Below the pieces are notes generated by a model. That model saw only the letters and a list, made by a program, of their open reading frames with translations, ran no database searches and was not told the DNA's origin. This document shows, one piece after another, positions 16,291-33,315 of a stretch of 63,047 nt of DNA (positions are counted from its first letter, which is position 1; each line of letters begins with the position of its first letter). This DNA is from an uncultured Thermoguttaceae bacterium. GTDB lineage: Bacteria > Planctomycetota > Planctomycetia > Pirellulales > Thermoguttaceae. The position numbers and the translations under genes were made by a program. Location: contig CAKVCP010000001.1 of assembly GCA_934725735.1 (NCBI GenBank), positions 1 to 63,047 on the forward strand. Reading direction: 5' to 3'.

Positions 16291-16597
16291 AAGGCCTTTC
16301 TTCATCCTCGTTGGGGAGGAGCAAGGCAATCTTGCTCTTTCTCCGCATTGCAGCGTTTCTTTCTATTCTTTCTTGCTTTAGTTTGTTCTCGTGAAACGTT
16401 TTTAAAGTCTGCTAGTATAATCCGTACGAATTTATTGGATAACGTCTCTTTGAGAAACTTTACCAGCGCATGATTCTTCGTCGTCTTTTTTAAAAGATAA
16501 ACTAAATATCACGTCTAATACGTTAGAAATTTCAATTTTTTCAACAATTTAGCTTAGAATGGAAAAATTCTTTGTTGAAATATATTTTTTAAGACTG

Positions 16598-16626
16598 TTG
16601 ACTTTTAATAATCGATTAGCTATTAT
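16598..16626 (+). promoter_or_regulatory. Near-consensus sigma70-like promoter in the A/T-rich spacer at the left edge of the accessory array
   Basis: TTGACT (16598-16603), 17-nt spacer, TATTAT (16621-16626). It points toward A1, about 310 nt downstream. Confidence 0.35.
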
Positions 16627-16937
16627 TTAAACAAAGGTTTCCTTGTCCTTCAAAGAAACTTTTGAAAGTCGACAAAGACGTCCGTCCCTATTTATTAGGA
16701 GTCGCGCTATGAAAAGCAGGGCGCTGAGAGTTCAGAATCATATTTTAGAACGTCTAGGCTTTTTCTCCGCCTTCTGGAGGGGAGAGGCGCTGAAAAAGCG
16801 CGTTTCCTCCTGCGCGCTAGCTTTTAAGCTGACAAAATAATTCTCTATCGCTTGGCGTCGTTTGGACTGAGTTTTTTGACTCGAGACGATTGTTCTTTGA
16901 TTTCCTTTAAAACGAGAAGAAGCTGAAGGAGTCGATC

Positions 16938-18119
16938 ATGTTCTTCAAAAATACAGGAATGTTTTATATTCCAGCGTTATGTCTGTTGGCGTTATACGCG
17001 TGTTGCGGGGACTCCGATTTGTCCCAGGACAAGTTTGTTCCTTTCGAAGGGGAATCGCTCTATTCGTCTCCCAACGGAAACGATATTGAGTTAATTTACC
17101 AAAGCGGCGAAGAAGAAAGCGTTGTTGAGACGAAAGTTGTTGCTTTTCCGAAGCGTCTTTCAGTTGGAGATACTTTCTATCTGGCCATATATAATAAAAA
17201 CTTGTCGGATAAAAGGATTAAGTATACGCTAAGTCCCTATTTCTATATTTCGCCTATGCTTTCATCTTCCTTGACGTCAGAAATCTACCAATGGAAGGAG
17301 GAAGTTGTCAACAGAATAAGATGTTTACGAATTTCTGAAGAACAAATTTTAGAGCCAGGCGCCGAAAGGATCTCGAGGAGCTGTTCGTGGGAATTTCCGC
17401 CTCTTGAAGATTGGAATGAGCCATTTTGGAAAGAACTTCGAGAGAAGCTTCCTCCTGAAGGGGCGAGTTGCCAACTACGTTTTTCTTTGACGACGACCGA
17501 AATTCGAGACGATCTCTCGACTGTTAATAGCTCTCACGACGTGGTTTTAGATCTTTGGGTGACGCCGCGTTCTGCAAAGGAAACCCAACTTTTAGAAGGA
17601 TGGCTACACTCGACTCCCGTAGATTTATTGCCCAACGATGTTGGCGACCGCAAAGAACCGAAGAAGATGGAAGGACTTCAGGGGGGCGTTGATCGTAAGG
17701 ACAAAATCAGCGAGGAGATATTGGATCTGAGGATGGAATGTCTCCAGGGGAGCGAGGAGAGTAAGATCAAAATCGGAGAGAACAGATGGGATCCATGGCT
17801 CTTCATTCGAACAGGAAATAGGAAACCGTCCGATCCGAATAATCCGACGACGTTAAAAGGATGGCGGGAATTGGAAGCCCAGTTGTCTCCAAGCGTGATG
17901 CGCGACGAGGTTCGTTTTACTCGACTGCAACTTGAGTATTATGCATCCTCTAGTCAATCCAAAAGAGAAGAGGCGAGAAAAGAACTCGTCGATTGGCTTC
18001 ATTCTTTGCCTCAAGCGCAACGCGTATCAATGGTTTCCAGCTTGAAATCGAAAGGAAATCTGTTCCGCAATACCAAACTACAAAAGGAGTATTTCGAGTT
18101 GATAAACGCGCTTGATTGA
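16938..18119 (+). CDS. Exported family-A paralog A1 (PLEDWN / GNRKPSDPN family, unknown function)
   Basis: RBS GAAGGAG. Signal or lipoprotein-like N-terminus (IPALCLLALYACCG). Motifs FPPLEDWNEPFWKELREKLPPEG and GNRKPSDPNNPTTLKGWRELEAQLSPSVMRDEVRFTRLQLEYY. About 85% identical to A6 over much of its length. Confidence 0.8.
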   Translation: MFFKNTGMFYIPALCLLALYACCGDSDLSQDKFVPFEGESLYSSPNGNDIELIYQSGEEESVVETKVVAFPKRLSVGDTFYLAIYNKNLSDKRIKYTLSPYFYISPMLSSSLTSEIYQWKEEVVNRIRCLRISEEQILEPGAERISRSCSWEFPPLEDWNEPFWKELREKLPPEGASCQLRFSLTTTEIRDDLSTVNSSHDVVLDLWVTPRSAKETQLLEGWLHSTPVDLLPNDVGDRKEPKKMEGLQGGVDRKDKISEEILDLRMECLQGSEESKIKIGENRWDPWLFIRTGNRKPSDPNNPTTLKGWRELEAQLSPSVMRDEVRFTRLQLEYYASSSQSKREEARKELVDWLHSLPQAQRVSMVSSLKSKGNLFRNTKLQKEYFELINALD

Positions 18120-18199
18120 GGATGAAAGATCGATCTAGGTCTTTCACCTAGGGGAAGAAAATGAAAAGAATGTGAGCGACATGTTCTAGGAGGCAAGCA

Positions 18200-19414
18200 A
18201 TGCATAATGCTTCAACGGTCAAAAAGACTCTCTTGGTTTCGACATATCACTTTTACCTTGATCCTTCAAATGGCGCGGCGATAACGACGCGCGAACTTCT
18301 TCATGCGTTGGCGTTACTCGGATGGCGCGTGCATACTTTTTGCGGATGCGCTCTTGATTTTCAAGATAAGAGGAATCCCGTCGAGTTTTTGGAGAGTCGA
18401 GGAATCGCGCCGAAACGAATTGTCGATTCCACTCAAACGGGCGGTTATTCGTTGGTAAATTTTCGAGACGGCGCCATTCATTCGACTTTATTTCTTCCCG
18501 AAGATAATTTTCATAAGCCTTCTCCGCAGATGGGAGAAATGTTTCTTCCTATCTTAAATCAAATCATCGGCGTCGCCAAACCTCAAATACTGGCGACATA
18601 CGGCAGTTATTGGCTAAGCGACCATATTCTTTCGGTCGCCAAAATCAATTCGTTAAAGACCGCTTTCCTTCTTCAGAATCATTCTTATAAGAATCTGAAA
18701 GACTTCGTAAAGGTTGATTTGACCATAACGCCGTCGAATTATACAGCGACTCATTACTCTGAACTTTTGGGACTCCCTTCCACCCCAATTGCTCCGATGA
18801 TGGATTGGGATAGTTTTATTTGCGACCCAACTTCTATGAAACGCAAGTATGTCGTGATGGTTAATCCTGAACCGAGCAAAGGGGGACTTTTAGTAGCGCG
18901 AATAGCGCATGAATTATGGAAGCGTCGCCCAGAGATTCCAATTTTGCTGGTGGAAGGAAGAGCCAAAGCTTCATGGTTGAAGCTTGCGGAGATTGATTGG
19001 ACTGGCGTTCGGAATGTCAATGTTATGGAATGTACGACAGATCCGCGCGATTTTTACAAAGAAGCGTATCTTGTTATTGTTCCTTCTTATTATCTAGAGA
19101 CTTTTTGTCGTGTCGCGGCAGAAGCTATGGCAAATGGAATTCCTGTTATTGTCAGTTCCCGAGGCGCGTTGCCTGAAGTTGTGGGAGACGCCGGTATTAT
19201 TTTAGACATACCGGCGAGATTGTTGGAGAATGATAAATTAACCCCCACGATAGGAGAGTCTGAAAAGTGGGTGGGGAATATTATTCTTTTATGGGACGAC
19301 AAAGAACTTTACGAGGATTATTCCCGACGCGCTCGGGAACGCGCTCAAAGATGGCGTCCTGAGATTATCGCGGCTCGTTACGACAACGCGCTAAGCGCCT
19401 TGATTGGGAGGTAA
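18200..19414 (+). CDS. GT4-family glycosyltransferase (GT-B fold)
   Basis: RBS AGGAGG. C-terminal motif ETFCRVAAEAMANGIPVIVSSRGALPEVVGDAGIIL is typical of Glycos_transf_1. Confidence 0.85.
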   Translation: MHNASTVKKTLLVSTYHFYLDPSNGAAITTRELLHALALLGWRVHTFCGCALDFQDKRNPVEFLESRGIAPKRIVDSTQTGGYSLVNFRDGAIHSTLFLPEDNFHKPSPQMGEMFLPILNQIIGVAKPQILATYGSYWLSDHILSVAKINSLKTAFLLQNHSYKNLKDFVKVDLTITPSNYTATHYSELLGLPSTPIAPMMDWDSFICDPTSMKRKYVVMVNPEPSKGGLLVARIAHELWKRRPEIPILLVEGRAKASWLKLAEIDWTGVRNVNVMECTTDPRDFYKEAYLVIVPSYYLETFCRVAAEAMANGIPVIVSSRGALPEVVGDAGIILDIPARLLENDKLTPTIGESEKWVGNIILLWDDKELYEDYSRRARERAQRWRPEIIAARYDNALSALIGR

Positions 19415-19513: not shown

Positions 19514-20946
19514 ATGCTTCAAGCGTCCTGGGGGATCCGAGACGTTTGAAGACGTTCAATTGTTATTTTTACAGGACGACGACTGAATTGTGTCGTCGTC
19601 GTATTGTCCCTTTTTTTACTGAAGGAGTATTGAATGATTTGTATTAGTCATTTAATTGCAGTGGCTTTCAAGCGCCGGAATCCTTTGCATAAACGAAAGG
19701 ACTCGTCGTTGGCTAAGCAGACGACGCGCAAATTGCGGCTTGACGCCCTTGAGTCGCGCAACCTGCTTTCTTGCGCAGGATTCGCCGATCCGGGAGTTCT
19801 GACCGAATCTTTGGATAGTTCGATTGCCGAGTGTCGCGCGACTGAAGCGATCGCCACTCCGCGAGACGCCGATGTGATCTATTTCGATCTTGACGACGCG
19901 CCGTTCTACGGCCCGCTTCCCAAAGAGGCTCACGAAGCCTACAGGAGACTGATTCAAAAGGGGAGCGCGCTTTCTGCGGCGGAATCCGACGCGATTGTCG
20001 AGACTCATTCCCATGATAATACGCTCGAACCTGCCGAACGCGTTAAGCCGTTAGCAGCGAGTCAAGCGTCAATCAAGGAGTATAACTTCGACGCTGAAAC
20101 GTTCGACGTCGGCGGGACGACATATTCGTCTGGCTCCGGAGGAAGCGGTAGCGATAGCGGAGGCGGCGGCTCCAGCGGCGGTTCGACGTCGGGAGGCTCG
20201 ACGTCTAGCGGCGGAACGCATGAGTACTGCTCGCATAATCCTTGGCTTTGCGGCGGTCTTGGAAGCTCTAGTTCTGGAGGAGCTTCCGGCGGCAATTCGA
20301 AACCAGGCTTTTATCTGATAACGGATGATAGCGACGAAATAGTCCTAGTTCTTAACGCCGGCGACGAAGACGAAAATAGCGAGCAAAATGAAAATTTGCA
20401 GCTTGTTGCGTCCAACTTGCCCGTTAAGGAGGTCATTCCTACGAAGAATGGTACAAGTTATAGTTTTACGGTGAAGCTGGATGTTAGTTCTTATGGAACG
20501 ATAAACGGTTCCTTCAAGGTAGTCGACTGCGACGGTCGTGAAAGCCCTAGCGTGGACGTCTGCGTTCGTCCCGTAAAAATCACAGGATTTGAGATTCAGG
20601 AAAAGGCGCCAGGCGCTGAAACCTTTACGTCTCTTGAGGACGACCATGTCGTATGGCAAGAGAATTTGAATCGTGTTGGCTTCAATGTGTTAGGCGATAT
20701 TGACGGAGACGATCCCGACGATTGCGCGGCGTTTATGAGCCTTTTTACTTATCAAGTAAAAGGTCAAGCGTGGACGTGGGATTCGACGGAGAACGACTAC
20801 GTTCGTTCTAATACCTGGAATAGCTTTAACGGCCTTAACGGCGGTTTAGGCGTATACAATCTAGAGATTGATCTTTACGCAAATAATCAGAAATTTAAAT
20901 CGCTGCCTGATAATGATCGTTATTGCTTTAACGCAGTTTCGAGCGT
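19514..20946 (+). repeat. Segmental duplication, copy 1 (leader plus first ~438 codons of the protease gene)
   Basis: Offset to copy 2 is 3867 nt. There are 4 mismatches in the first ~21 nt, then no mismatch found by eye from 19535 to 20946 (1412 nt). All overlapping ORF translations in the track are identical between the copies. Confidence 0.9.
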
Positions 20947-22126
20947 CGCCTGGGAAAACGCGCCAATCGTGTCGACTCCAGGGGAGACTTCTTCTCATTT
21001 GAATTTAATTTCTGACGGTTCCAACGGGGTTAAGGCTTTTGTCGAACAACCGTTGAATACGTCGACAGGCGCATTGAATCCGGAGAAGAATATTGCGACG
21101 GCACGAGTGACGCTTGCTGTGCAACTTCCAGCTGGCATGACGGGAACGGTACACGTCGATTGGTTTGATCCCGATAATCCGATTGGTAGTACGATAACGG
21201 CGAGCGGATATGGGAAAGGAAAACGCGACAATCATGGCACAATTAGCCAGATTAGTAGCAATGTCTTGACGTTTGACGCCCAAACAAACACCCGTCTTCT
21301 TACGTTGACGATAGACGGGGGATATGCCGGCGATAATTATATATTAGCGGCGCATCCCAATTTGGGGGTTATGGGGCGAGCGGAAGTTCGCAATAATAAC
21401 GTAGTGGTTCCAGTGATTGACAACAACGCGTCTGGGGGTTCGTCTAGTAGCGGCGGAAGCTCTGAAGGCGACTATGCGTATGTTACCCTTGATAAAACCT
21501 CAATGCTTACCGTATGGCGCTCGTTGTGGGTGGAACGTGATCAGATGACTTATACTTCTGTGACTGGAAGTGTGGAAATCGCCGATCCCGTACCCATAGA
21601 TGGTATTGTTAGTTCCGAACTGGCTAGAGGATGTATAACGATCAGAGGGTATTCTCCTAATACACGTCCGACGGTTCCAGGAATTTATTCTTATGGTAGT
21701 ACGGAGGAATCCCAAAATTATACAGAGTCTCGCGATTTGGCTATGCCCACCAATACGTCGTGGACGTTGTTGTCTGTAGGAGGTTTTAAGTCTGATATCT
21801 GCGCTGGTTTCTTTGTGAGCAACAACATCGTGGTTTTCTCGGATTTAATCGTTGATGAAGTTCAAGACTGGAATAGGGATCATGAGACAACTTACTCCGC
21901 TTCAGACGCTGTAAGACGTACTGCATTGCATGAAATCGGTCATGCTTTTGGTTTGGGAGACATTACACTGGATGAAGGGGAAGAGATAACAGACGATCAC
22001 GTTGGCATTATGGTAACGGGGGCAGGATTTGATTGGGATTACCGCATGGCTCCTGAAAATATGGCTTTTACTATTGATAATCTTCAGCAAATACAAAGTC
22101 GGCTTTGCCCTGTGGGCAATTTCTAA
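19634..22126 (+). CDS. Large extracellular-type protein MP1: LExRxLL N-terminal motif, G/S-rich linkers, C-terminal metzincin-like Zn-protease module
   Basis: RBS GAAGGAG. N-terminus RKLRLDALESRNLLS. G/S tracts (SGSGGSGSDSGGGGSSGGSTSGGSTSSGG; ASGGSSSSGGSS). HEIGHAFGLGD (HExxHxxGxxD) followed by HVGIMV (Met-turn candidate). Confidence 0.85.
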   Translation: MICISHLIAVAFKRRNPLHKRKDSSLAKQTTRKLRLDALESRNLLSCAGFADPGVLTESLDSSIAECRATEAIATPRDADVIYFDLDDAPFYGPLPKEAHEAYRRLIQKGSALSAAESDAIVETHSHDNTLEPAERVKPLAASQASIKEYNFDAETFDVGGTTYSSGSGGSGSDSGGGGSSGGSTSGGSTSSGGTHEYCSHNPWLCGGLGSSSSGGASGGNSKPGFYLITDDSDEIVLVLNAGDEDENSEQNENLQLVASNLPVKEVIPTKNGTSYSFTVKLDVSSYGTINGSFKVVDCDGRESPSVDVCVRPVKITGFEIQEKAPGAETFTSLEDDHVVWQENLNRVGFNVLGDIDGDDPDDCAAFMSLFTYQVKGQAWTWDSTENDYVRSNTWNSFNGLNGGLGVYNLEIDLYANNQKFKSLPDNDRYCFNAVSSVAWENAPIVSTPGETSSHLNLISDGSNGVKAFVEQPLNTSTGALNPEKNIATARVTLAVQLPAGMTGTVHVDWFDPDNPIGSTITASGYGKGKRDNHGTISQISSNVLTFDAQTNTRLLTLTIDGGYAGDNYILAAHPNLGVMGRAEVRNNNVVVPVIDNNASGGSSSSGGSSEGDYAYVTLDKTSMLTVWRSLWVERDQMTYTSVTGSVEIADPVPIDGIVSSELARGCITIRGYSPNTRPTVPGIYSYGSTEESQNYTESRDLAMPTNTSWTLLSVGGFKSDICAGFFVSNNIVVFSDLIVDEVQDWNRDHETTYSASDAVRRTALHEIGHAFGLGDITLDEGEEITDDHVGIMVTGAGFDWDYRMAPENMAFTIDNLQQIQSRLCPVGNF

Positions 22127-22161: not shown

Positions 22162-23361
22162 ATGCAAGCGTCAGTTCTTTTTAGCCTGTTTGCCTCGCTA
22201 TTGACGATCTTGTGGGGAGGATGGAGTAACGTAGGATATGCCGCAGAGTATCTTCCTGTCTCGGGAGAAGAATTGAACATTCCCCTCGCTCGTGAGTCGA
22301 CGGAGGATCTCTCGCTTGAGCGCACTCTGGCGATTTTCCCGGCTGAGGTTTACTTTGGCGATTCATTGTACTTGCTCCATTGCGACTTTAACAAATCAGA
22401 CTCAACGCTGAAAGGTCTTATGGATTTGCCATATTCTTTACGCGTTGGTTTTAACGGAGTCCAAATCACGTCAGAGCTCTCTGAATATTCTTACGAATAT
22501 GTTTTCGAAAAACAAAATAGTTTTTTGGATGACGCTCTTTATTCGTACAGACCCGATAGATTTTTACCGGGCGAACGAAAAAGTGGATTCTATACGATCA
22601 TTGATTTGCCCCCCTTAGAGGATTGGGATGATCCTTTTTGGAAGGATATACGAGAGAAAATGACTCCAGAGGGAATTGCGTGTTCTTTAAGCTTTCGAAT
22701 CTCTGTTGGACGATTCGCTTTGGCAGACGCCCCAAAAAATGTTGAGTCTTCGCCTGCCGAAAGGAAGTTGACTACGACAGAGAATGTTAAGGCGTCCTTT
22801 GTGATCAAACCTCGTCCAAACGATGAACTATCGCTCTTAGAAAAGTGGTATAACAACACGCCCAAGGAATTGTTTCCAGTAAGGAAGGGGTCTTATAAGG
22901 TTCCTTCAAGTGGGAGCGTCATTCCTGATAATAAGGAAAGTCACATCAAGGTGGGGGATAAGGATTTTTCCCCATGGCGTTTGATTCGAGTCGGAAATCG
23001 CAAACCCTCCGATCCCAATAATCCGACGACGCTAGAGGGATGGCAGAAGCTTGAAGCGCAATTATCGCCCAGTACGATGCGCGACGAGATTCGTTTAACG
23101 CGTCTTCAATTGGAGTACTATTCAGCCGACAGCGAAGAACGTTCTGAATACTGGAAAAACGAGCTGGTAAATTGGCTTTCAACTCTTCCAGAGTCTCAAC
23201 GAACGGCGTACGTTGGAATGATCTGGCGTCAAGGCGTTGGTCAGACAATTCCGGAATATTCCAGTAAGAGTAAGGCTTTGACGATTGCTCTTGAACCGCT
23301 TATGGGAGACGGAACGAAGTATTTTTTTAAAAAGGTAGAAAAACTTTACAGACAACCATAA
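22162..23361 (+). CDS. Exported family-A paralog A2
   Basis: Starts 36 nt after the MP1 stop (ATG 22162 with GAAGGTG RBS; the ORF track uses GTG 22153). Has a signal peptide, LPPLEDWDDPFWKDIREKMTPEG, and GNRKPSDPNNPTTLEGWQKLEAQLSPSTMRDEIRLTRLQLEYY. Confidence 0.8.
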   Translation: MQASVLFSLFASLLTILWGGWSNVGYAAEYLPVSGEELNIPLARESTEDLSLERTLAIFPAEVYFGDSLYLLHCDFNKSDSTLKGLMDLPYSLRVGFNGVQITSELSEYSYEYVFEKQNSFLDDALYSYRPDRFLPGERKSGFYTIIDLPPLEDWDDPFWKDIREKMTPEGIACSLSFRISVGRFALADAPKNVESSPAERKLTTTENVKASFVIKPRPNDELSLLEKWYNNTPKELFPVRKGSYKVPSSGSVIPDNKESHIKVGDKDFSPWRLIRVGNRKPSDPNNPTTLEGWQKLEAQLSPSTMRDEIRLTRLQLEYYSADSEERSEYWKNELVNWLSTLPESQRTAYVGMIWRQGVGQTIPEYSSKSKALTIALEPLMGDGTKYFFKKVEKLYRQP

Positions 23362-23380: not shown

Positions 23381-24813
23381 ATGCTTCAGACGTCTTGGGG
23401 TATCCGAGACGTTTGAAGACGTTCAATTGTTATTTTTACAGGACGACGACTGAATTGTGTCGTCGTCGTATTGTCCCTTTTTTTACTGAAGGAGTATTGA
23501 ATGATTTGTATTAGTCATTTAATTGCAGTGGCTTTCAAGCGCCGGAATCCTTTGCATAAACGAAAGGACTCGTCGTTGGCTAAGCAGACGACGCGCAAAT
23601 TGCGGCTTGACGCCCTTGAGTCGCGCAACCTGCTTTCTTGCGCAGGATTCGCCGATCCGGGAGTTCTGACCGAATCTTTGGATAGTTCGATTGCCGAGTG
23701 TCGCGCGACTGAAGCGATCGCCACTCCGCGAGACGCCGATGTGATCTATTTCGATCTTGACGACGCGCCGTTCTACGGCCCGCTTCCCAAAGAGGCTCAC
23801 GAAGCCTACAGGAGACTGATTCAAAAGGGGAGCGCGCTTTCTGCGGCGGAATCCGACGCGATTGTCGAGACTCATTCCCATGATAATACGCTCGAACCTG
23901 CCGAACGCGTTAAGCCGTTAGCAGCGAGTCAAGCGTCAATCAAGGAGTATAACTTCGACGCTGAAACGTTCGACGTCGGCGGGACGACATATTCGTCTGG
24001 CTCCGGAGGAAGCGGTAGCGATAGCGGAGGCGGCGGCTCCAGCGGCGGTTCGACGTCGGGAGGCTCGACGTCTAGCGGCGGAACGCATGAGTACTGCTCG
24101 CATAATCCTTGGCTTTGCGGCGGTCTTGGAAGCTCTAGTTCTGGAGGAGCTTCCGGCGGCAATTCGAAACCAGGCTTTTATCTGATAACGGATGATAGCG
24201 ACGAAATAGTCCTAGTTCTTAACGCCGGCGACGAAGACGAAAATAGCGAGCAAAATGAAAATTTGCAGCTTGTTGCGTCCAACTTGCCCGTTAAGGAGGT
24301 CATTCCTACGAAGAATGGTACAAGTTATAGTTTTACGGTGAAGCTGGATGTTAGTTCTTATGGAACGATAAACGGTTCCTTCAAGGTAGTCGACTGCGAC
24401 GGTCGTGAAAGCCCTAGCGTGGACGTCTGCGTTCGTCCCGTAAAAATCACAGGATTTGAGATTCAGGAAAAGGCGCCAGGCGCTGAAACCTTTACGTCTC
24501 TTGAGGACGACCATGTCGTATGGCAAGAGAATTTGAATCGTGTTGGCTTCAATGTGTTAGGCGATATTGACGGAGACGATCCCGACGATTGCGCGGCGTT
24601 TATGAGCCTTTTTACTTATCAAGTAAAAGGTCAAGCGTGGACGTGGGATTCGACGGAGAACGACTACGTTCGTTCTAATACCTGGAATAGCTTTAACGGC
24701 CTTAACGGCGGTTTAGGCGTATACAATCTAGAGATTGATCTTTACGCAAATAATCAGAAATTTAAATCGCTGCCTGATAATGATCGTTATTGCTTTAACG
24801 CAGTTTCGAGCGT
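23381..24813 (+). repeat. Segmental duplication, copy 2
   Basis: See copy 1. The identity block is 23402-24813. The first difference after the block is gagcgtCgcc versus gagcgtTgcc. Confidence 0.9.
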
Positions 24814-26074: not shown

Positions 26075-27532
26075 ATGATAAAAAAATTTTGGAGAGTTCC
26101 CGTCGTCGCGGCTCTTCTGGCATGCTTATGCGTTTTGAACAGGGCTCCCGCCGATAGCTATGTTCCTCAATCAGCCGAAACTGCTACGTTTAAGGGAATC
26201 CGTCATGATGGGGACAAATCGGAATGGTCGTTTGAAATTTTTCCTAAGGAAATGACGTATGGCGATTTCGCGTATGTTCTTGAACGCAGAACCAACGTCT
26301 CTGGCGAGACGATCAAGAATTATCCGATTTTCGGGGATCCGTTCGTCAAAGTTTGGGAAGAGCCCAATTCTGTTGTCCTAACGGCTGAAGGGATCGAGGG
26401 AGAATATCGTTGGAAGCAGGAGTACCCGTCGAGTTTCGAGAGCGATTACTTTTGTTTCGATGGTAAGGATCTCGCCCCAAACGAAAGCGTGATAAAATCG
26501 AGACTAGTTCTCGATTTTCCCCCTGTGGAGGATTGGAACTCGCCATTTTGGAAGGCTTTACGCGATAAGGTAACCCCCGAAGGAATTAAATGTTCGTTGA
26601 AGTTTAATTATCCTCACTCCTTGAAAACAGAAGACAAGTCTCGTCCAAAATACGTGCAAGAAAGCGTTTGTTACGAATTTCTCATGAAATCAAGGCCTGA
26701 AAGTGAAATGAGTCTCTTGGAAGATTGGGTTAAGGCGTCAAGCGACAAATATCTTCCGTATGAGACGGAGTGGAAAAAATTTTGGAAAGGCCGAGGAAAG
26801 AAGAGTACAAATCAGATTTCTCTTGGGTTAAACAAGTATAATGTGAGCTCCTTTGTTAGACTTGGAAATAGAAAACCGTCTGACCCGAACTCTCCGACCT
26901 CGCTGAAAGGGTGGCGGGAACTTGAATCCAGCCTAGCCCCAAGCTCGATGCGCGACGAGATTCATTTAACTTGTCTTTTGCTGGAGTACTACGGTTCGAT
27001 TACTAACAAAGGGAAAGCTGAATCAAGCCGAAAAATAGCGGATTGGTTGGCGAGTTTGCCTGCCCCTCAGCGCGTAGCGCTGAGCTCTTATTTGGTTACC
27101 GACGGCGAGAGCCTTTGCGACGAGAGTCTCAAGGAAGATTACTATAAGTTGACGAGGGCTATCTACAATCTCTTGGAGCCTTCCGCTCAACGCGTCGTAT
27201 ATCAGCGCGAGTATGATAGGGGAGAGGAGTCTTTACTGGTTCCGCCGACCGGAATGGTGGTACAACGCACCCTTGAGGACGATATTCGACCGACCGCCGA
27301 AGATTTCGCCCAGGGCAAATGCGAGCTTGCCGACGGTTTTCGATTGACGACGCTAACCGGACCGTCGAAAACGATTCCGGCTGTTCTGAAATTCGTTTCC
27401 TATGACGCCGAAACACAAATGGCGACGATGAGAACTCGATCAGGATATCCATTATACTTTTCTCTCAATGAATTTAGCGATCAGGATCGATTGTACATCT
27501 TGGAGGAAAGTAAAAAGAGCGTGAAACCGTAA
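26075..27532 (+). CDS. Exported family-A paralog A3 (long form with C-terminal SHD1-like extension)
   Basis: Starts 49 nt after the MP2 stop. Lipobox-like LLAC. FPPVEDWNSPFWKALRDKVTPEG; GNRKPSDPNSPTSLKGWRELESSLAPSSMRDEIHLTCLLLEYY. Has an extra ~130 aa C-terminal region. Confidence 0.8.
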   Translation: MIKKFWRVPVVAALLACLCVLNRAPADSYVPQSAETATFKGIRHDGDKSEWSFEIFPKEMTYGDFAYVLERRTNVSGETIKNYPIFGDPFVKVWEEPNSVVLTAEGIEGEYRWKQEYPSSFESDYFCFDGKDLAPNESVIKSRLVLDFPPVEDWNSPFWKALRDKVTPEGIKCSLKFNYPHSLKTEDKSRPKYVQESVCYEFLMKSRPESEMSLLEDWVKASSDKYLPYETEWKKFWKGRGKKSTNQISLGLNKYNVSSFVRLGNRKPSDPNSPTSLKGWRELESSLAPSSMRDEIHLTCLLLEYYGSITNKGKAESSRKIADWLASLPAPQRVALSSYLVTDGESLCDESLKEDYYKLTRAIYNLLEPSAQRVVYQREYDRGEESLLVPPTGMVVQRTLEDDIRPTAEDFAQGKCELADGFRLTTLTGPSKTIPAVLKFVSYDAETQMATMRTRSGYPLYFSLNEFSDQDRLYILEESKKSVKP

Positions 27533-27700: not shown

Positions 27701-28891
27701 ATGAACAATAAATTTCTTATCCTGACGTTTCTATGTCACATGTTTCTGGGCGCCGTTGATGAAAAATTTGCGTCGCTCTTATTAGCCAACGACTCAATTA
27801 AGGTTATTGAGTTTCCTTCGGAAATTATGCCGGAAGAGACGCAAATTAGGAAGTATTCTGAGATATATCCCACAGAATTACATTTAGGCGATCCTATTTA
27901 CATTGTTACCTATGTTGAAAATCTTTCCGACCACGATATCAAGATATGGCCGAATTATCAGACTCCGTATAATAATGTGGCATATGATAGGCACAGCGTT
28001 TTTAGCGACGGAATAGACGGAGATTATTTTTGGATTACAGAGAGTCCTGTTCCTACTTCCGGCTGTCGCTATTATCCTCCGCTATGGTTAAAACCTGGGT
28101 GTAAAGCTATCGATAGTTGCGCTGTTCTTGAATTTCCTCCTCTTGAGGATTGGAACAAGCCTTTTTGGACTAATTTGAAGGAAAAAATGCTCGCCAACGG
28201 CGAGGTTTCATGCACTTTACGCGTCAACTTTACCAATGCCAAAGAACGGACGGTTCAAAATGAAGCCGAAGTTGAAACGCCGACTGAGTCAACGCCGCGA
28301 TTAGACGTTGACGAGTCGCTTGTGCGCGACGTTTCTCTGAAGGTGATGAAGAGTTCAACGTTTTTTCTTGACGTCTGGAGCCAGGAGATACCGGAAGAAT
28401 TTCTTCCGGAAGATTTTCCTCAGAATCAAACATGCTTTTATAAGAGTTCCAGGGATATTGACGCGATGTTGAAGATCATGCCGCAGATAAAGATCGGAAA
28501 TTCTTATCTCTATTATGACAACGTCGTGAGAGCCGCTTTTCGGAAGCCGCCTACGACCAAATTCCCGTCGACTATTGAGAAATGGCGGCAACTTGAATCG
28601 TTTTTTTCCGGCTCTTTAAAGGACGAGTTCACCTATATTCGGATGGCGTTAGAATACTATGACGCTCAGGAGGGGAAAGAGTCGGATATCGCTTTGCAAA
28701 AATTGCTGTCTTGGATGAAGAATCTCCCTTTCCCTCAATTGTACGTAATGGCTAAACTTCAAGTTTTACAGATTGAAAGGCATATTAGTCCGGAACTACC
28801 TAAAGAGAGCGGATTGCGCCCCAAGAGGACTAGGTTGCATGAAGAACTTAATTCTCTAATACAGACTTGTGAAGCTCATGTCAACGATTGA
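27701..28891 (+). CDS. Exported family-A paralog A4 (most divergent member)
   Basis: The likely start is MNNKFLILTFLCHMFLGA (ATG 27701); the track start at 27653 lies inside the GT remnant. FPPLEDWNKPFWTNLKEKMLANGEVSC; degenerate core FRKPPTTKFPSTIEKWRQLE...LKDEFTYIRMALEYY. Confidence 0.75.
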   Translation: MNNKFLILTFLCHMFLGAVDEKFASLLLANDSIKVIEFPSEIMPEETQIRKYSEIYPTELHLGDPIYIVTYVENLSDHDIKIWPNYQTPYNNVAYDRHSVFSDGIDGDYFWITESPVPTSGCRYYPPLWLKPGCKAIDSCAVLEFPPLEDWNKPFWTNLKEKMLANGEVSCTLRVNFTNAKERTVQNEAEVETPTESTPRLDVDESLVRDVSLKVMKSSTFFLDVWSQEIPEEFLPEDFPQNQTCFYKSSRDIDAMLKIMPQIKIGNSYLYYDNVVRAAFRKPPTTKFPSTIEKWRQLESFFSGSLKDEFTYIRMALEYYDAQEGKESDIALQKLLSWMKNLPFPQLYVMAKLQVLQIERHISPELPKESGLRPKRTRLHEELNSLIQTCEAHVND

Positions 28892-29150: not shown

Positions 29151-29885
29151 ATGAAACCAACGAAGCGCTTTCTTAGGATCTTAACGTTGTTTGCGACGCT
29201 TTGCTGCTTGACTGTTGGAGCGCTGGCGAAAGGCGAAGAGTATGCGCCTTTTTCCGGTCAGGAATTGGACGCTGAAGCTCCGAGGTTTCAAGACGGCGTG
29301 AAACGCGGCGTTTTGACGTATCCGTTCGAAACGTACTATGGCGATTCTCTTTACATTCTAAGTTATCGAGTTAACGAATCTGGTGAAACGATCCGTAATT
29401 TTCAAAAGGAAAGAATCGTCGGGCATAATCTACATTTTTACGAGGTAACAATAACCTCAAAGGATATAGATTTGTCGCATGAATGGGCGTTTGAACGTCA
29501 AAGCGTTTATGCAGGCGACGTTAAATATGCGTTTATGCCTGGAAATTTTGAACCGGGCGTAAGAGAAACAGGTTTTTATACGGCGCTCGATTTTCCTCCC
29601 CTTGAAGATTGGAACGATCCCTTTTGGAAGGATTTACGAGAAAAAATGACGCCTGAAGGCGTTAAGTGCACTCTAAGTTTTCGCCTTGGAGTAGGTCATG
29701 CCTTTTGCAGCCGTCGAGTTTCTCTTCATGAACTTGGGCATGCCTTTGACTTGATGGATAAAACGGCAGAGCAAGATAAGGGGGTTATGTCGTACAAAGG
29801 TATATATACGGGATTGTCTCCTGAAAATTTGGAGTTTGAAGATTTTGAACTTCGGTTGATTCAGTCTAAATCAAAACCTGTCTAA
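29151..29885 (+). CDS. Chimeric ORF A5: signal peptide plus N-terminal half of family A, fused to the last ~60 aa of a metzincin-like module
   Basis: Family-A sequence runs up to FPPLEDWNDPFWKDLREKMTPEGVKCTLSFRLGVG. It is followed by HAFCSRRVSLHELGHAFDLMDKTAEQDKGVMSY...ENLEFEDFELRLIQSKSKPV (HExxH, Met-turn and protease tail). The GAGG RBS favours ATG 29151. Confidence 0.7.
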   Translation: MKPTKRFLRILTLFATLCCLTVGALAKGEEYAPFSGQELDAEAPRFQDGVKRGVLTYPFETYYGDSLYILSYRVNESGETIRNFQKERIVGHNLHFYEVTITSKDIDLSHEWAFERQSVYAGDVKYAFMPGNFEPGVRETGFYTALDFPPLEDWNDPFWKDLREKMTPEGVKCTLSFRLGVGHAFCSRRVSLHELGHAFDLMDKTAEQDKGVMSYKGIYTGLSPENLEFEDFELRLIQSKSKPV

Positions 29886-29929
29886 AACGCTTATGAACGT
29901 CGTTTAAGTGTGTATGGTAGAGGATAATC

Positions 29930-31006
29930 ATGAAAAATAATCCACAAATATTTCTGTGCATAATGGCGCTTAGCGTTGGATATTTGTTCTTTTTCAACAT
30001 ATCCTTCGCATCTTCGTTTCCCAACGGAAACGATATCGAGTTAATTTTCCAAAGCGCAGAAAAAGAAAGCGTCGTTGAGACGAAAGTCGTTGCTTTTCCG
30101 CAACGTCTTTCGGTGGGAGATACTTTCTATCTGACTATTTATAATAAAAACTTGTCGGATAAAAGGATTCGATATACGTTAAGTCCCTATTTCTATATAT
30201 CTCCTATCCTTTCCTCTCCTTTGACGTCAGAGACATATCAATGGAAGGAAGAAGTTATCGACACGGCAAGGTTTGAATTATGTGTTCAAGAACAAATTTT
30301 AGAACCTGGCGCCAAAGACTTGTCGAGAAGCTGTTCATGGGAATTTCCACCTCTTGAAGACTATAACGCGCCATTTTGGAAGGAACTTCGAAAGAACCTT
30401 CCTGTTGCAGGGGTGAGTTGTCAACTACGTTTTTCTTTGACGGTGACAGAAAGTCGAGACGATCTTTCTACCGTTGAGAGCACGCACGACGTAGTTTTAG
30501 ACCTTTGGGTGACGCCGCGTTCTGAGCAGGAAACACAACTTTTAGAAGGATGGCTGAACTCGACCCCCGTAGGTTTGTTGCCCAATGAGGTCTCAGATCG
30601 TAAAGAACCGAAGATGAATACGGGACGTCTCCTGGGGAGCGCTGATAGTAAGATCAAAATCGGATGGAGTAGATGGGACCCTTGGCTTTTTATTCGAGTA
30701 GGAAATAGAAAACCGTCCGACCCGAATAATCCGACGACGCTAAAAGGATGGCGTGAACTGGAAAACCAATTATCTCCTAGCACGATGCGCGACGAGATTC
30801 GTTTAACGCGGTTGCAACTTGAGTATTACTCCGCTTCAAGTCAGAAAAAAAGAGAAGAGGCGAAAAAGGAACTCGTCGATTGGCTTCGTTCTTTACCTCA
30901 AGCGCAACGCACTTCAATGGTATCCAGCTTGAAATCGAAGGAAAATCTTTTCCGCAACACGAAACTCAAGAAGGAGTACTTCGAATTGATGAACATGCGG
31001 TATTAG
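29930..31006 (+). CDS. Exported family-A paralog A6
   Basis: RBS GAGGA. Has a signal peptide, FPPLEDYNAPFWKELRKNLPVAG, and GNRKPSDPNNPTTLKGWRELENQLSPSTMRDEIRLTRLQLEYY. It is the closest paralog of A1. Confidence 0.8.
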   Translation: MKNNPQIFLCIMALSVGYLFFFNISFASSFPNGNDIELIFQSAEKESVVETKVVAFPQRLSVGDTFYLTIYNKNLSDKRIRYTLSPYFYISPILSSPLTSETYQWKEEVIDTARFELCVQEQILEPGAKDLSRSCSWEFPPLEDYNAPFWKELRKNLPVAGVSCQLRFSLTVTESRDDLSTVESTHDVVLDLWVTPRSEQETQLLEGWLNSTPVGLLPNEVSDRKEPKMNTGRLLGSADSKIKIGWSRWDPWLFIRVGNRKPSDPNNPTTLKGWRELENQLSPSTMRDEIRLTRLQLEYYSASSQKKREEAKKELVDWLRSLPQAQRTSMVSSLKSKENLFRNTKLKKEYFELMNMRY

Positions 31007-31144
31007 CAGGAGCTTTAGAAAACATCCATTAATATAAATAAACTTCGCAGATCTCGAACGAGGAGCCAGAATTAAATAGGCTGTATGGAGATCTGACAAA
31101 TGTTTGAGGATAAATCGGGGAGTCGTTATTTAGGTCGCTTTCCG

Positions 31145-31216
31145 TATATGGCGGCTCCTTTTCTAACTTGTTTATGGTTTACTTTTGTCAGGGCTTGCTG
31201 TCGAGTTGGACGGTTT
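31145..31216 (+). pseudogene. Possible highly decayed protease 3'-end remnant upstream of A7
   Basis: One frame reads YMAAPFLTCLWFTFVRACCRVGRF, compared with the MP1 tail YRMAPENMAFTIDNLQQIQSRLCPVGNF (shared Y.MAP, FT., C.VG.F). The similarity is weak. Confidence 0.3.
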
Positions 31217-31253
31217 TATGGAGTCTACGACTTGTTTAGAAAGAAGTTTGATA

Positions 31254-32719
31254 ATGATAAAACGATTTTGGAGAGTACCTATAGTTGTAGCTCTTCTGGC
31301 GTGCTTATGTATTTTGAATAGGACGCCCGCTGATAGCTATGTTCCTCAATCCTCAGAGACCGCTACGGTTAAGGGAGTACGTCTGGATGGGGAAAAACCG
31401 AAACTTCATTTGAAATTTTTCCTAAAGAAGCGACGTATGGGGATTTCGCATACGTTCTTCAGCGCGCAACCAATGTTTCAGACGAGACGATCAAGAGTTA
31501 TCCAACTTTTGATTACCCTGTCGTCGGCGTTCTTGAGGCGCCCGATTCTGTCGTTATAACGGCGGAAGGTATTGATGGAGAATATCGTTGGAAGCAGGAA
31601 TACTGGGCTGATATCGATTTTGAGTATGCGTATCCTCCTGCGAAGGATCTAGCTCCAAACGATAGCGTGATAAAATCGAGGCTAATTTTAGATTTTCCCC
31701 CAGTGGAGGACTGGAACGCGCCATTTTGGAAGAGCTTACGAGAAAGGATGACTCCCGAGGGAGTTAAATGTTCATTAACGTTTAATTATTCTTACTCCTC
31801 GTTTACAGAAGCAAATTCTCGCCCCAAATACGCACAAGGAAGCGTGCGTTATGAATTTCTAATGAAATCAAGACCTGAAAAGGAAATGAGTCTTTTGGAA
31901 GATTGGGTTAAAGCGTCAAGCGACGAATATCTTCCATATGAGACGAGCGCTAAAAAGGTCTGGAAGGGTCGAGGAAAGAAGAGTACGAATCAGATTTCTC
32001 TTGGATTAAACAAGTATAATCTGAGTACGTTTATTAGACTTGGGAATAGAAAACCGTCGGATCCGAACTGTCCGACTTCTTTGAGTGGATGGCGGGAACT
32101 TGAAGATAGTTTGGCTCCAAGTTCGATACGCGACGAGATTCATTTAACCTGTCTTTTGTTGGAGTACTATAGCTCTATGACCGACAAAGGGGAAGCGGAA
32201 TCAAGTCAAAAAATAGTAGACTGGCTAGCGAGTTTGCCTGATCCTCAGCGCGTGGCCTTAAGCTCCTATTTAGTCACCGACGGCGAGGATCTTTGCGACA
32301 AGAATCTCAAGGAGAAATATTACAAGTTGACGAGGTCGATTTATCCTCTCTTAGAACCTTCCGCTCAACGTATCGTATATAAACGCGAGGCTTCTAGAGG
32401 GGAGGCGACTTCACTGGTTCCGCCAAATTCAATGAAGGTGGAACGTCGCTTTGAAGACGATATTCGACCGACAGACGATGATTTGGCGCTAGGTAAAAGC
32501 GAACTTGCCGACGGTTTTAGATTGACGACGTTAATCGGTCCGTCAGGGACGATGACGGCTGTTCTAAAATTTGTTTCATATGACGTCGAAAAACAAATGA
32601 CGACGATGAAAACTCGCTCAGGTTACTCTTGCAGCTTTAATCTCAATGAATTTAGCGAACAGGATCGTTTGTATATCTTAGAGGAAAATGAAAAGAGTGT
32701 GAAACATAACTCATTTTAG
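31254..32719 (+). pseudogene. Family-A paralog A7 (A3-like long form) disrupted by a single -1 frameshift
   Basis: ORFs 31185..31559 and 31667..32719 are collinear with A3. Relative to A3, one nt is missing near 31395-31410 (gggaaaaaccgaaacttcat versus ggggacaaatcggaatggtcgt). The downstream frame is open across the gap. Confidence 0.8.
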
Positions 32720-32850
32720 GAGTAAAGCAACGCATGAAGATTCAGCGGTCATAAAGCGCTCCAGGTTTTGCCGTATCGCTTTTGTCTTGATCCTTCTAAT
32801 GGAGCGACGATAACGACGGGCGAACCTCTTCATGCGTTGGCTTTAGGTGG
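32720..32850 (+). pseudogene. Second decayed 5' fragment of a GT4 glycosyltransferase paralog
   Basis: Aligns to the RBS and 5' end of the 18200 gene. The ATG is mutated to ACG, and there is a frame disruption and an in-frame stop within ...ggagcgacgataacgacggg.... Confidence 0.65.
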
Positions 32851-33315
32851 AGGGAATACGACCTGTGAAAACTGCCGGAGATCAATAATTCGTCGTCGAT
32901 GTACGGCAAAAAATGAGTGATAGAATGGCTCAAGTCGGCGCCTGAGGCTCTGCGATTAGTCTTAACGACGTCTATGGCTAGCGCTACAGGTAGATTTAAC
33001 AAAACCTATTTACGAGAGAAGAATTTAGAACTCTTGAACTTCTTAAAACAGAAGGACTCTTTGACGAAGAGGGGCTAAGGGAGTTTAATCTTATCTAAAT
33101 AGAAGCTTTGAAGCGAAGAAGAGTCTTTCGATAAAGAGACGACGTCTCGATTAAAGGAAGACTCTTCGTTTACTTCTTGCTCTAAAGATCCGGTAGCATT
33201 CTCCGACGCTTGTTATTGGCGAGACATATTATCTTTGGAACTAAAGCTCTAGGGATGAATTGAGCGCGCGTAACCGCTATAATGATTTGGACAGATCTTC
33301 ACAGGAGGAAAGGGA

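Follow-up and report, generated by a model that had tools for sequence, protein, structure and literature searches.

A polymorphic array of predicted exported proteases and co-varying partner genes in an uncultured Thermoguttaceae bacterium

What is the role of a gene array in which near-identical exported proteases differ in their catalytic domains, each is followed by a member of a second exported family, and the genes of that second family outnumber the proteases? We consider this question for a 63,047 nt stretch of an uncultured Thermoguttaceae genome (contig CAKVCP010000001.1, hereafter the window), using syntenic contigs and more distant metagenomic relatives.

Anatomy of the island

The island, c. 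17 kb in length, sits between uvrB and a GNAT acetyltransferase gene (Table 1). The original prediction, made from the sequence alone, described an A/T-rich, all-plus-strand block after uvrB containing seven paralogues of one family (family A), two proteases of about 835 aa with HExxH/Met-turn ends, one GT4 glycosyltransferase and decayed fragments, and all of these elements stand. GC content is 0.454 across positions 16291–33310, against 0.558 to the left and 0.551 to the right in the window; all substantial open reading frames lie on the plus strand; a single profile matches all seven family A copies, five of them intact (E = 1e-45 to 1e-136); and both proteases (MP1 and MP2), the GT4 gene and the fragments are present. 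The term 'amplified' used in that prediction is an understatement, as the array is no simple duplication: recombination has combined at least six cassette types into a mosaic. The left flank is 97.6–99.5% identical to that of contigs L003 and L008, and the GNAT flank is syntenic in L003, L013, L014 and L015.

Table 1. Features of the island and its flanks (window coordinates).
Feature	Position	Strand	Evidence
uvrB, conserved left flank	14221..16290	+	689-aa counterpart in syntenic loci with UvrB Pfam domains
A1, type c, intact, orphan at island head	16938..18119	+	family A profile E=8e-136
GT4 glycosyltransferase	18200..19414	+	Glycos_transf_1 E=2.9e-14
MP1, predicted exported protease, type-a catalytic domain	19634..22126	+	830 aa
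MP1 type-a metzincin-like catalytic domain	21506..22126	+	profile vs PDB; invariant columns
A2, partner of type-a domain	22162..23361	+	family profile; type pairing; AF2 model
MP2, predicted exported protease, type-b catalytic domain from 25382	23501..26026	+	841 aa
A3, 485 aa, type-b partner, C-terminal SHD1-like extension	26075..27532	+	type pairing
A4, type d, intact orphan	27701..28891	+	match to L003 type-d A gene
Type-f catalytic-domain 3' fragment, orphan, last 40 codons	28996..29115	+	L011, L010 matches
A5, chimera of family A N-terminal part and protease tail	29151..29885	+	L011, L010, L009 matches
A6, type c, intact orphan directly 3' of type-c tail	29930..31006	+	comparison with L013
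A7, type-b-like pseudogene, frameshifted	31254..32719	+	repeat offset shift; split ORF
GT4 5' fragment, right edge of repeat unit	32753..32860	+	tblastn
Family A C-terminal fragment, small, eighth A piece	32917..33075	+	family A profile E=4.7e-9
GNAT acetyltransferase, conserved right flank	33316..33894	+	Acetyltransf_1 E=4e-6

Could the array be an artefact of collapsed or mis-joined repeats? MP1 and MP2 share an exact repeat of 1,412 nt, and contig L008 stops exactly where this repeat starts. Against this, every segment and junction type recurs in independent assemblies (L003, L004, L005–L007, L008, L010, L013–L015). L008 covers window positions 9634–23500 at 99.5% identity and L003 covers 27674–37651 at 99.3%, while L010 spans MP2-A3-A4-fragment-A5, L013 spans protease-A6-A7-GT fragment-GNAT, and L005, a 400-kb scaffold, holds two A-GT4-MP-A units. 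The array is not an assembly artefact, an explanation that we regard as extremely improbable; copy number across the 1,412-nt repeat is provisional.

The GT4 gene lacks a signal peptide and scores 29.8 bits (cutoff 26) against the GT4-conflict family PF20706. Across loci its product is 92–100% identical at the amino acid level, with dN/dS of 0.16–0.19. The GT4 5' fragment shows 64% identity over GT4 residues 9–44 (tblastn) and 81% nucleotide identity to 18230–18325, and the same remnant is present in L003, L009 and L013.

A constant N-terminal part and a variable catalytic domain

Alignment of MP1 with MP2 bears out the predicted constant N-terminus with a swapped C-terminal module: the N-terminal ~635 aa, within which the 1,412-nt exact repeat falls, are near-constant, with ~450 aa identical, and divergence begins directly past an invariant LTVWRxLWVExD motif, into metzincin-like domains of ~200 aa. 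MP1 comprises an N-terminal LRLDALESRNLLS motif, Ser/Gly-rich linkers, a beta-rich middle and the catalytic domain, which starts straight after the invariant LTVWRSLWVERD motif and reads, for type a, LTVWRSLWVERD ... HEIGHAFGLGD ... GIM ... LQQIQ; the corresponding end of MP2 reads HELGHFLGLQD...GVM. A single fold, in several variants, underlies all catalytic modules (HExxHxxGLxD/H plus Met-turn); they do not represent different toxins. A profile of the domain matched MT-MMP16 (E = 7e-4) and serralysin (E = 0.012) in the PDB, the former match spanning the zinc helix, Met-turn and C-terminal helix, and the columns W, R, L, E, D, H, E, H and Q are invariant among 42 sequences. HExxH is kept in 43 of 43 metagenome catalytic domains and the Met-turn methionine is nearly invariant; together with the MT-MMP match, these features make the domain look active. 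The predicted structure model of MP reached a pLDDT of 32.

Family A

Family A proteins (360–485 aa) match no Pfam or NCBIfam family. The AF2 model of A2 is confident (pLDDT 84.8) and predicts a beta-sandwich plus a helical bundle; a fold search of the PDB gave no match (best TM 0.26, to arrestins), and in this search no known inhibitor or chaperone resembled it. The two protein families have not previously been described; the original prediction had seen in neither partner a resemblance to the known toxin/immunity or protease/inhibitor families. Sequence conservation is strong in the C-terminal half of family A, where the motif RKPxxPxxP...W is invariant, and the N-terminal half is a hypervariable beta-sandwich. 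By a heuristic, N-termini are signal-like in 194 of 233 family A proteins, many with a lipobox, so that the family is probably exported. Additional protein-binding modules (SHD1 or WD40) are present in some members, and the extension of A3 aligns to the SHD1-bearing protein P0135 (E = 1e-7).

The copies in the window have different histories. A2 starts 35 nt past the MP1 stop. A1 differs little from the A gene 3' of the type-c protease in L009 (dN = 0.054), and tblastn and DNA alignment found no protease remnant upstream of it. A4 is 96.7% identical to the A gene 3' of the type-d protease in the same-species contig L003, while its own protease is absent from the window strain. The fragment ahead of A5 is 73% identical to the catalytic-domain tail of L011 and 97.5% identical to a longer fragment in L010. 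A5 itself arose by a deletion that fused the N-terminal ~185 aa of a type-f A protein (identity 69.6% with the L011 partner, 92.4% with an intact gene in L010) to a type-c catalytic-domain tail of ~60 aa (from ~29706; 96.6% identical to that of L009). A7, 79–84% identical to A3 in nucleotides, carries a 1-nt frameshift, seen as a change of repeat offset from 5179 to 5178, and its reading frame is split into 31185–31559 and 31667–32719.

Each protease type has its own partner

Of the five places at which a protease end was said to run into a family A start, four were recovered (22126 to 22162, 26026 to 26075, 29115 to 29151 and 29885 to 29930); at the fifth (~31216 to 31254), tblastn and DNA alignment found no protease remnant before A7. 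The adjacency and module co-variation expected in other genomes are both present. Among 14 protease/A pairs from syntenic Thermoguttaceae contigs, catalytic-domain identity and A identity are tightly correlated (r = 0.956, Mantel p = 1e-4), as against r = 0.57 for the constant MP region. Six types (a–f) can be distinguished, each with its own A type and with zero exceptions; even the A gene that comes after the orphan type-f tail at 28996–29115 is of type f. Across 80 independent metagenome contigs, family A lies directly 3' of such a protease domain in 48 of 72 evaluable genes, down to ~25–30% identity, and the stop and start codons of these pairs often overlap. The same protease-A pair occurs in L099.

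Cassette exchange and orphan genes

Comparison with L003, whose flanks are 97.6% and 99.3% identical to those of the window, reveals a cassette swap: in L003 the 3' part of a type-d protease replaces 7 kb of the window (the rest of MP1, A2, MP2 and A3), a swap that left A4, a type-d gene, orphaned in the window. The alleles are old: when the window is compared with L005, dS reaches 1.2 in the constant region of MP as against 0.23 in uvrB. Exchange between lineages is indicated by the MP2-A3 cassette, with 97.2% identity beside flanks of 92–93%. Recombinase and mobile-element genes were not seen in the fetched flanks, nor were T5/T6/T7 secretion or RHS genes found, in line with the reported absence of secretion, Rhs/YD, integrase and transposase genes.

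The predicted trail of orphans is present both as fragments and as whole A genes. The five intact A genes of the window are of types c, a, b, d and c', whereas its proteases are of types a and b only. Elsewhere, protease-free family A arrays occur, with six genes in tandem in L001 and five in L096, others being single, and some A-only loci adjoin glycoside hydrolases. The orphans A6 and A1 are under purifying selection, at dN/dS of 0.25–0.33 (0.33 for A6 against its cognate in L013).

What might the protease-A pairs do?

Our preferred reading, which we hold tentatively and at somewhat less than even chances, is that the island encodes a polymorphic secreted protease together with cognate exported inhibitor or immunity proteins. 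The binding, inhibition, protease target, competitive use and GT4 role that we infer would fit together as follows. MP would be exported through its planctomycete-type N-terminal motif, its constant ~635-aa stalk displaying the ~200-aa catalytic domain. The downstream A gene, often translationally coupled, would yield a periplasmic or lipid-anchored protein that binds and neutralizes the matching catalytic domain, shielding the producer's own envelope; potempins (PMC9890683) and VgrG2b/PA0261 (PMC6899460) are precedents for exported proteins that neutralize metallopeptidases. Cassettes of catalytic domain plus A would be swapped between strains by recombination in the MP constant part and at A-gene borders, with displaced cassettes accumulating downstream. 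A proteins may also guard against the proteases of neighbouring strains, in which case more intact A genes than proteases (five and two) would be expected. The GT4, a putative conserved accessory, may glycosylate the Ser/Gly-rich linkers of MP.

Several points weigh against this inhibitor reading. Family A proteins exceed known protease inhibitors and typical immunity proteins three- to fourfold in size, and their conserved C-terminal half suggests a shared function beyond recognizing a variable protease. We know of no route for an 830-aa protease into a competitor's periplasm, one catalytic fold is used throughout, unlike in classical polymorphic toxins, and linkage by itself would make adjacent genes co-vary. 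Decay is evident in some of the orphans (A5, A7 and, in L097, three of five copies), and some A-only loci stand beside glycoside hydrolases.

Pairing, export and co-variation equally fit self-protection alone, in which the MPs would be digestive or host-directed and each A would shield the producer's envelope or keep the enzyme latent, the polymorphism perhaps being driven by substrates, host immunity or phage rather than bacterial competition. The KLIKK/potempin array of Tannerella forsythia, where each secreted peptidase has an adjacent lipoprotein inhibitor, is a direct precedent (PMC9890683), and relatives come from Thermoguttaceae MAGs, with the glycoside hydrolase neighbours of some A loci also in keeping. 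We consider this unlikely, as it leaves unexplained the surplus of intact A genes, purifying selection on orphans, the A-only arrays and the persistence of deep allelic lineages at a single site in one species. Many of the same observations can be accommodated if family A acts as a chaperone or anchor: a periplasmic steric chaperone or foldase (cf. Lif for lipases), or a type-specific surface anchor or secretion partner, would account for a tight, often overlapping downstream position and an exported, type-specific product, and a size of ~360–480 aa with a helical C-terminal domain is closer to what one expects of a chaperone than of a small inhibitor. Docking to common machinery could be the task of the conserved C-terminal half, and the SHD1/WD40 modules are consistent with a helper. 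Such a helper nevertheless serves no purpose where the protease it assists is missing, yet A genes commonly stand alone, either as intact orphans (A1, A4, A6) or in protease-free arrays of five to six copies. The fold search gave no chaperone-like match, and we think this role doubtful too.

Co-variation of neighbouring genes is expected through linkage alone, and protease and A might travel together without interacting. In such surface-variation or substrate cassettes, the A proteins might be surface or binding proteins that vary, or pro-proteins that the protease processes. A hypervariable beta-sandwich on a constant C-terminal half recalls variable surface proteins, and dN/dS of 0.25–0.6 exceeds that of housekeeping genes. 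However, adjacency kept down to ~25–30% identity would be difficult to maintain if the two genes had no functional connection, and overlapping stops and starts suggest coupled production, making this a distinctly slim prospect.

Comparison with known systems

Serralysin-type systems (AprA/AprI, PrtA/Inh) resemble the island in that a metzincin is secreted and the gene beside it encodes an exported inhibitor specific to it, and serralysin is among the profile matches of the catalytic domain. Serralysins carry RTX repeats and use a T1SS, and their inhibitors are ~100-aa beta-barrels; we know of no polymorphic cassettes among them. In orphan immunity arrays (Bacteroidales acquired interbacterial defence clusters; orphan cdiI/rhsI), tandem partner genes are kept without an effector, as in L001 and L096 and for A1, A4 and A6, whose protective function is putative. 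In LipA/Lif, the gene of a secreted hydrolase precedes that of a client-specific helper which is exported, largely helical and comparable in size; the fold search gave no structural match for family A, and lipase-specific foldases are not known to persist as orphans or in arrays.

VgrG2b of Pseudomonas aeruginosa has a C-terminal zinc-metallopeptidase domain that acts as a toxin in the periplasm of bacteria; PA0261, a cognate extracytoplasmic immunity protein encoded beside it, neutralizes this domain (PMC6899460), an arrangement like that proposed here. In contrast, VgrG2b is delivered by a T6SS as part of the VgrG spike (PMC6899460) and is not known as a multi-allelic array, and Pfam and PDB searches gave no sequence relation of either protein to MP or family A. 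The KLIKK peptidases, which include the MMP-like karilysin, form a secreted array with one shared constant domain and differing catalytic domains, each gene-paired with an exported lipoprotein, the potempin, that inhibits it specifically and protects the outer membrane. However, potempins are 98–132-aa beta-barrels encoded upstream, whereas family A proteins are larger, encoded downstream and without structural match; the constant KLIKK domain is a C-terminal T9SS signal, whereas that of MP is N-terminal; the KLIKK catalytic domains belong to different classes rather than one fold; and no orphan or strain-swap pattern is described for potempins in the abstract (PMC9890683).

Polymorphic toxins (CdiA-CT/CdiI, Rhs, MafB) share with the island an exported protein whose N-terminal part is conserved and whose C-terminal effector domain varies between strains, a conserved boundary motif, a co-varying gene directly 3', orphan fragments with partners and recombinational cassette replacement (Zhang et al., 2012; PMC3482391). 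The island differs in having no RHS or filamentous-haemagglutinin repeats and no T5/T6/T7 secretion or PVC trafficking domains; what varies in it is a single metzincin-like fold in several alleles, in place of unrelated toxins, its junction motif LTVWRxLWVExD belongs to the domain family itself, and its exported partner of 360–485 aa has no match to Pfam Imm families. The layout resembles that of bacterial toxin-antidote loci, yet it is built from two newly recognized protein families.

Layout of the island and its flanks

The island (16291–33310) has a GC content of 0.454, against 0.558 to its left and 0.551 to its right in the window, and all of its substantial ORFs lie on the + strand, as the original prediction of an A/T-richer, all-plus-strand block of ~17 kb had it. 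It is flanked by uvrB on the left and by a GNAT gene and then a FAD-oxidase gene on the right, and over 8.4 kb of flank it shares 93% identity with a contig from a Thermoguttaceae MAG, which places the window in that planctomycete family. Promoter and terminator scans across the island gave counts no different from the shuffled level. Of five proposed junctions at which a protease end would run directly into a family A start, four hold, while the one at ~31216 is rejected because similarity to the MP2/A3 junction starts only ~10 nt before the A7 start; protease remnants were found neither upstream of A7 nor upstream of A1.

Features of the island, in window coordinates
Feature	Position	Strand
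A1, family A	16938-18119	+
GT4 glycosyltransferase	18200-19414	+
MP1, protease type a	19634-22126	+
A2, family A type a	22162-23361	+
MP2, protease type b	23501-26026	+
A3, family A type b	26075-27532	+
A4, family A type d	27701-28891	+
Protease tail, 40 codons, type f	28996-29115	+
A5 chimera	29151-29885	+
A6, family A type c	29930-31006	+
A7, frameshifted family A	31254-32719	+
GT4 5' fragment	32753-32860	+
Small family A fragment	32917-33075	+

Elsewhere in the window, a second low-GC stretch (44740–48121, +; GC 0.45) encodes an McrB-like AAA_5 ATPase (696 aa) and McrC (PF10117, E = 3.7e-47) and is, going by these predicted products, an McrBC-type restriction island. Outside the variable island, positions 38498–42645 (−) encode a GspK-like type II secretion pseudopilin of 771 aa (T2SSK_1st, E = 3e-12) and an adjoining 610-aa protein without a Pfam match, a pair that every syntenic contig has on its right flank. 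Related contigs have conserved on their left flank a 1118-aa protein (window 7161–10517, −) with a hydrazine-synthase-alpha middle domain, a 3-keto-disaccharide hydrolase domain and a weak cytochrome c match.

The proteases and their catalytic domain

The first ~450 aa of the two proteases, MP1 and MP2, are identical, and their genes have a 1,412-nt exact repeat in common. Comparison of eleven homologues showed MP to be a mosaic, with a constant N-terminal region of ~335 aa, an allelic middle comprising at least two or three deep alleles (38–50% identity) and a hypervariable end of ~200 aa. Ser/Gly-rich linkers are plain in the sequence, and no Pfam or NCBIfam matches were found outside the catalytic domain. 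The variable end starts directly after LTVWRSLWVERD. When 42 catalytic domains, including those of distant metagenome homologues, were aligned, the W, R, L, E and D of this motif proved invariant, and so did one Arg, one Trp, the two His and the Glu of HExxH and, in a terminal IxxIQ, the Gln; a G(I/V)M methionine was nearly so (at least 90%). The LTVWRSLWVERD motif thus opens a domain family of its own and is more than a recombination joint.

The predicted HExxHxxGxxD and Met-turn modules are present: the extended zinc motif reads HEIGHAFGLGD in MP1, HELGHFLGLQD in MP2 and HELGHVFGLQH in the homologue P0124/L015, and the G(I/V)M methionine aligns, at the sequence level, with the MMP Met-turn in PDB profile matches. 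HExxH is kept in all 43 metagenome homologues (43/43), and the Gly and third ligand vary in the distant ones. Searched against the PDB, the catalytic-domain profile matched MT-MMP catalytic domains best (E = 7e-4, from the zinc helix via the Met-turn to the C-terminal helix), followed by serralysin, fragilysin, archaemetzincin and snapalysin. The Pfam M10, Zincin_1 and reprolysin models match below threshold, the matrixin M10 model (PF00413) reaching at best 14–17 bits against a gathering cutoff of 24, and a precomputed ‘weak’ M10 match is on record for one homologue (L099). Membership of M10, which would require the curated cutoff, was thus rejected, the domain being related to M10 only. An AF2 model of full-length MP1 (11 sequences) has a secondary-structure order compatible with a metzincin fold, which at a pLDDT of 32 is unreliable. 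We conclude from these sequence features that the C-terminal domain of MP is in all likelihood an active metzincin-like peptidase of an undescribed family.

At its N-terminus MP bears LRLDALESRNLLS, which we take, from its position and by analogy with planctomycete secreted proteins, to be an export motif. Distant homologues have (E)PLEER(Q/E)LLA at this place. Motifs of this type lie ~20–90 residues from the start (window 19634–19790; contigs L024, L028, L043 and L092), at times without a preceding hydrophobic Sec-type segment, and within the window they are confined to the two MPs. The motif may be a planctomycete-specific export signal; a literature search for an LExRxLLA-type N-terminal motif found nothing.

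Family A and the GT4 gene

No credible match to family A was found in Pfam (including its Imm* families), NCBIfam or PADLOC. In a 90% library the family numbers 178 clusters, whose members are unnamed or ‘hypothetical’ throughout and, where a source is named, come from Thermoguttaceae MAGs; in a 50% library it numbers 404 clusters. Its AF2 model, built from 114 sequences (pLDDT 84.8, pTM 0.86), consists of a signal peptide, beta-sandwich domains (~38–270) and a six-helix bundle (291–396). Compared by fold with the PDB, the model gave a best TM of 0.26 (arrestin-type beta-sandwich noise only); it matched no viral structures or models, and the sequence profile matched nothing in the PDB. Neither partner can thus be placed in a described family, family A being unmatched in Pfam, NCBIfam, PADLOC and the PDB and the MP catalytic domain lying below Pfam cutoffs. 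A potempin- or Inh/AprI-type inhibitor (a beta-barrel of ~100–130 aa) was considered and rejected, as family A proteins have 360–485 aa in a beta-sandwich plus six-helix bundle. The locus is built, then, from two undescribed protein families.

The invariant positions of family A sit in the C-terminal half, around GNRKPSDPNNPTTLxGW and RDE, and the N-terminal sandwich is variable; this strongly conserved half points to a common function. Signal-like N-termini, many with a lipobox, were recognized by a simple heuristic in 194 of 233 family A proteins, in line with the predicted signal or lipoprotein-type N-termini. Additional protein-binding modules occur in some members: P0131 and P0135 have SHD1, and P0191 has a WD40 propeller. 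The C-terminal extension of the A3 type (window 27110–27529; A3 has 485 aa) aligns to the SHD1-bearing P0135 (E = 1e-7), which is its only link to SHD1, as Pfam does not call this domain in A3 itself.

The GT4 glycosyltransferase matches Glycos_transf_1 (53.4 bits against a cutoff of 26.4) and, in its C-terminal half only, GT4-conflict PF20706 (29.8 bits against 26). The ‘GT4 in conflict systems’ family has a predicted effector role in such systems (PMC8195603). The enzyme is cytoplasmic and highly conserved, and might conceivably glycosylate the Ser/Gly linkers of MP. As GT4 lies downstream of A in only 10 of 56 evaluable cases, we regard it as an accessory part and not as core.

Catalytic domains and family A types change together

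The MP-bearing contigs are syntenic, in the order uvrB, A, GT4, MP, A, further genes, GNAT, FAD oxidase. Their 16 protease/A pairs fall into six types, each with its own A type: a (A2-like, 399 aa), b (A3-like, 474–485 aa), c (A1/A6-like, 358–368 aa), d (A4-like, 396 aa), e (A of 380 aa) and f (A5-like, 386–401 aa). Where the catalytic domain is complete (14 pairs), its identity correlates with the identity of A (r = 0.956, Mantel p = 1e-4), a co-variation to which linkage contributes and which linkage alone also gives; for the constant region of MP, the correlation with A is r = 0.57.

The flanks of contig L003 are 97.6% and 99.3% identical to those of the window, with breakpoints at window 20673 (inside MP) and 27674 (the A4 start), between which L003 has 1.4 kb of a type-d protease and the window 7 kb (the rest of MP1, A2, MP2 and A3). 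This makes A4 the partner of a protease that the window strain has lost. The orphan protease tail and the N-terminal part of A5 behind it are both of type f, and an intact version of this type-f gene is present in L010; the tail of the A5 chimera and A6 behind it are both of type c. In all, the window's proteases represent types a and b, its intact A genes represent types c, a, b, d and c', and its copies of types f and b' are decayed.

The MP2-A3 cassette is 97.2% identical between contig L005 (18886–22433) and the window (23376–26923), and the flanking genes are 92–93% identical, which suggests that this cassette was recently transferred between lineages. Between L005 and the window, the constant region of MP has a dS of 1.2, and uvrB one of 0.23. 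From the high dS of MP, together with a cassette more similar than its flanks, we infer that the island holds old allelic lineages moving between related genomes. Estimates of dN/dS are 0.25–0.6 for family A genes, orphans included (A6 0.33; A1 versus A6 0.25), 0.26–0.67 for catalytic domains, 0.16–0.19 for GT4 and 0.06 for uvrB. Two contigs with MP followed by A (L011 and L012; CAVGEG010000153.1 and CAVGEG010000151.1) are binned under Paratractidigestivibacter sp., an actinobacterial genus; this placement is probably a binning error, their content matching the planctomycete island.

Adjacency and orphans in metagenomes

A word-index protein search returned nine MP relatives, or 20 with the catalytic-domain profile, numbers that understate the family; local profile searches of the fetched contigs raised this to >40. 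Scanning JGI metagenomes with the MP alignment yielded no confirmed loci, the peptide patterns being too specific, and many MP homologues were recovered instead when the family A alignment was run against JGI metagenome contigs, which gave 80 independent loci. By local profile searches, an ORF ending in an MP-type protease domain lies directly upstream of 48 of the 72 evaluable A genes, the stop of one and the start of the other often overlapping; the remaining A genes are mostly second tandem copies. The adjacency, for which the original prediction had proposed such a survey, is thus conserved, and holds down to about 25–30% identity to A2.

Family A also occurs where the fetched DNA contains no protease, as six tandem copies (L001), as a decayed GT4-A remnant (L098) and, in other loci, as a single gene. 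L096 (6856–14975) has a tandem array of five intact family A genes and no nearby protease, and in its sister contig L097 (6857–15012) frameshifts break three of the five; turnover of A-only arrays thus occurs even among close strains. On an unrelated metagenome contig (L018, 2380–4020), about the first 23 GT4 codons are fused to the MP middle. This deletion chimera resembles A5 in kind and shows that such decay recurs in other lineages.

What the MP/A module may do

The reading we favour, at somewhat less than even confidence, is that a secreted protease has its catalytic domain matched by an exported neutralizing partner, which would confer immunity in competition between related strains. Cassettes of catalytic domain plus A would be exchanged by recombination, and displaced cassettes would be kept as orphans. 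It is unlikely that A instead gives potempin-like self-protection against a digestive or host-directed protease; immunity in competition is preferred to pure self-protection because intact A genes outnumber proteases, arrays free of proteases exist and the alleles are old. Against a neutralizing partner count the size of family A, much larger than any known inhibitor, its strongly conserved half, with the common function that this points to, and the fact that linkage by itself gives co-variation. A role for family A as a dedicated chaperone, anchor or secretion partner is about as improbable as self-protection, and still less credence goes to linked surface-variation or substrate cassettes whose products do not interact directly. 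That the array is an assembly artefact, named beforehand as a possible undoing of the prediction, is contradicted by independent contigs and is most improbable.

A bolder form of the neutralizing-partner reading, which we consider doubtful, is that the family A proteins, large and exported, would form a new class of metzincin inhibitors, each specific to one allele, with immunity as their role. On this view Planctomycetota would have in MP/A their first polymorphic ‘protease warfare’ system, using an N-terminal export signal and not contact-dependent injection, and allelic diversification of one protease fold and not shuffling of unrelated toxins, with orphan A arrays as community-level protection.

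To our knowledge, almost nothing is known of competition by Planctomycetota or of the means by which their unusual envelopes are protected. If the neutralizing-partner reading is true, the locus offers a defined, testable effector/antidote pair in this phylum, a new metzincin-like family with a ~200-aa domain bounded by the invariant LTVWRxLWVExD and IxxIQ, and a new exported protein fold, perhaps a specific metalloprotease inhibitor; it would also extend the polymorphic-cassette logic of Cdi/Rhs to a protease/antidote pair of which both members are extracytoplasmic. Inhibitors of the MMP type are of practical value, potempin A being an example. Were A a chaperone or anchor, the conserved two-gene module with its strain-level cassette swapping would still define a new hypervariable surface system.

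Comparison with known systems

In function, the systems that come closest are the KLIKK peptidases with their potempins (PMC9890683) and VgrG2b, a metallopeptidase paired with an immunity protein (PMC6899460). In both fold and size, family A differs from the potempins and from the partner of VgrG2b. The toxin/immunity-like architecture originally predicted is borne out in part. Unlike polymorphic toxin systems (PMC3482391), MP is without a known trafficking module (T5SS, T6SS, T7SS, RHS, PVC), having only its N-terminal (E)PLEERxLLA-type motif, and the diversity of toxin folds is absent. The likeness nonetheless extends to four tested features. Among those shared with such systems are a conserved N-terminal region joined to a C-terminal domain that varies among strains, a gene immediately downstream that co-varies with this domain, and downstream orphan C-terminal fragments with their partner genes, here the 28996–29115 fragment followed by A5, the chimera tail followed by A6, and A4 as an orphan.
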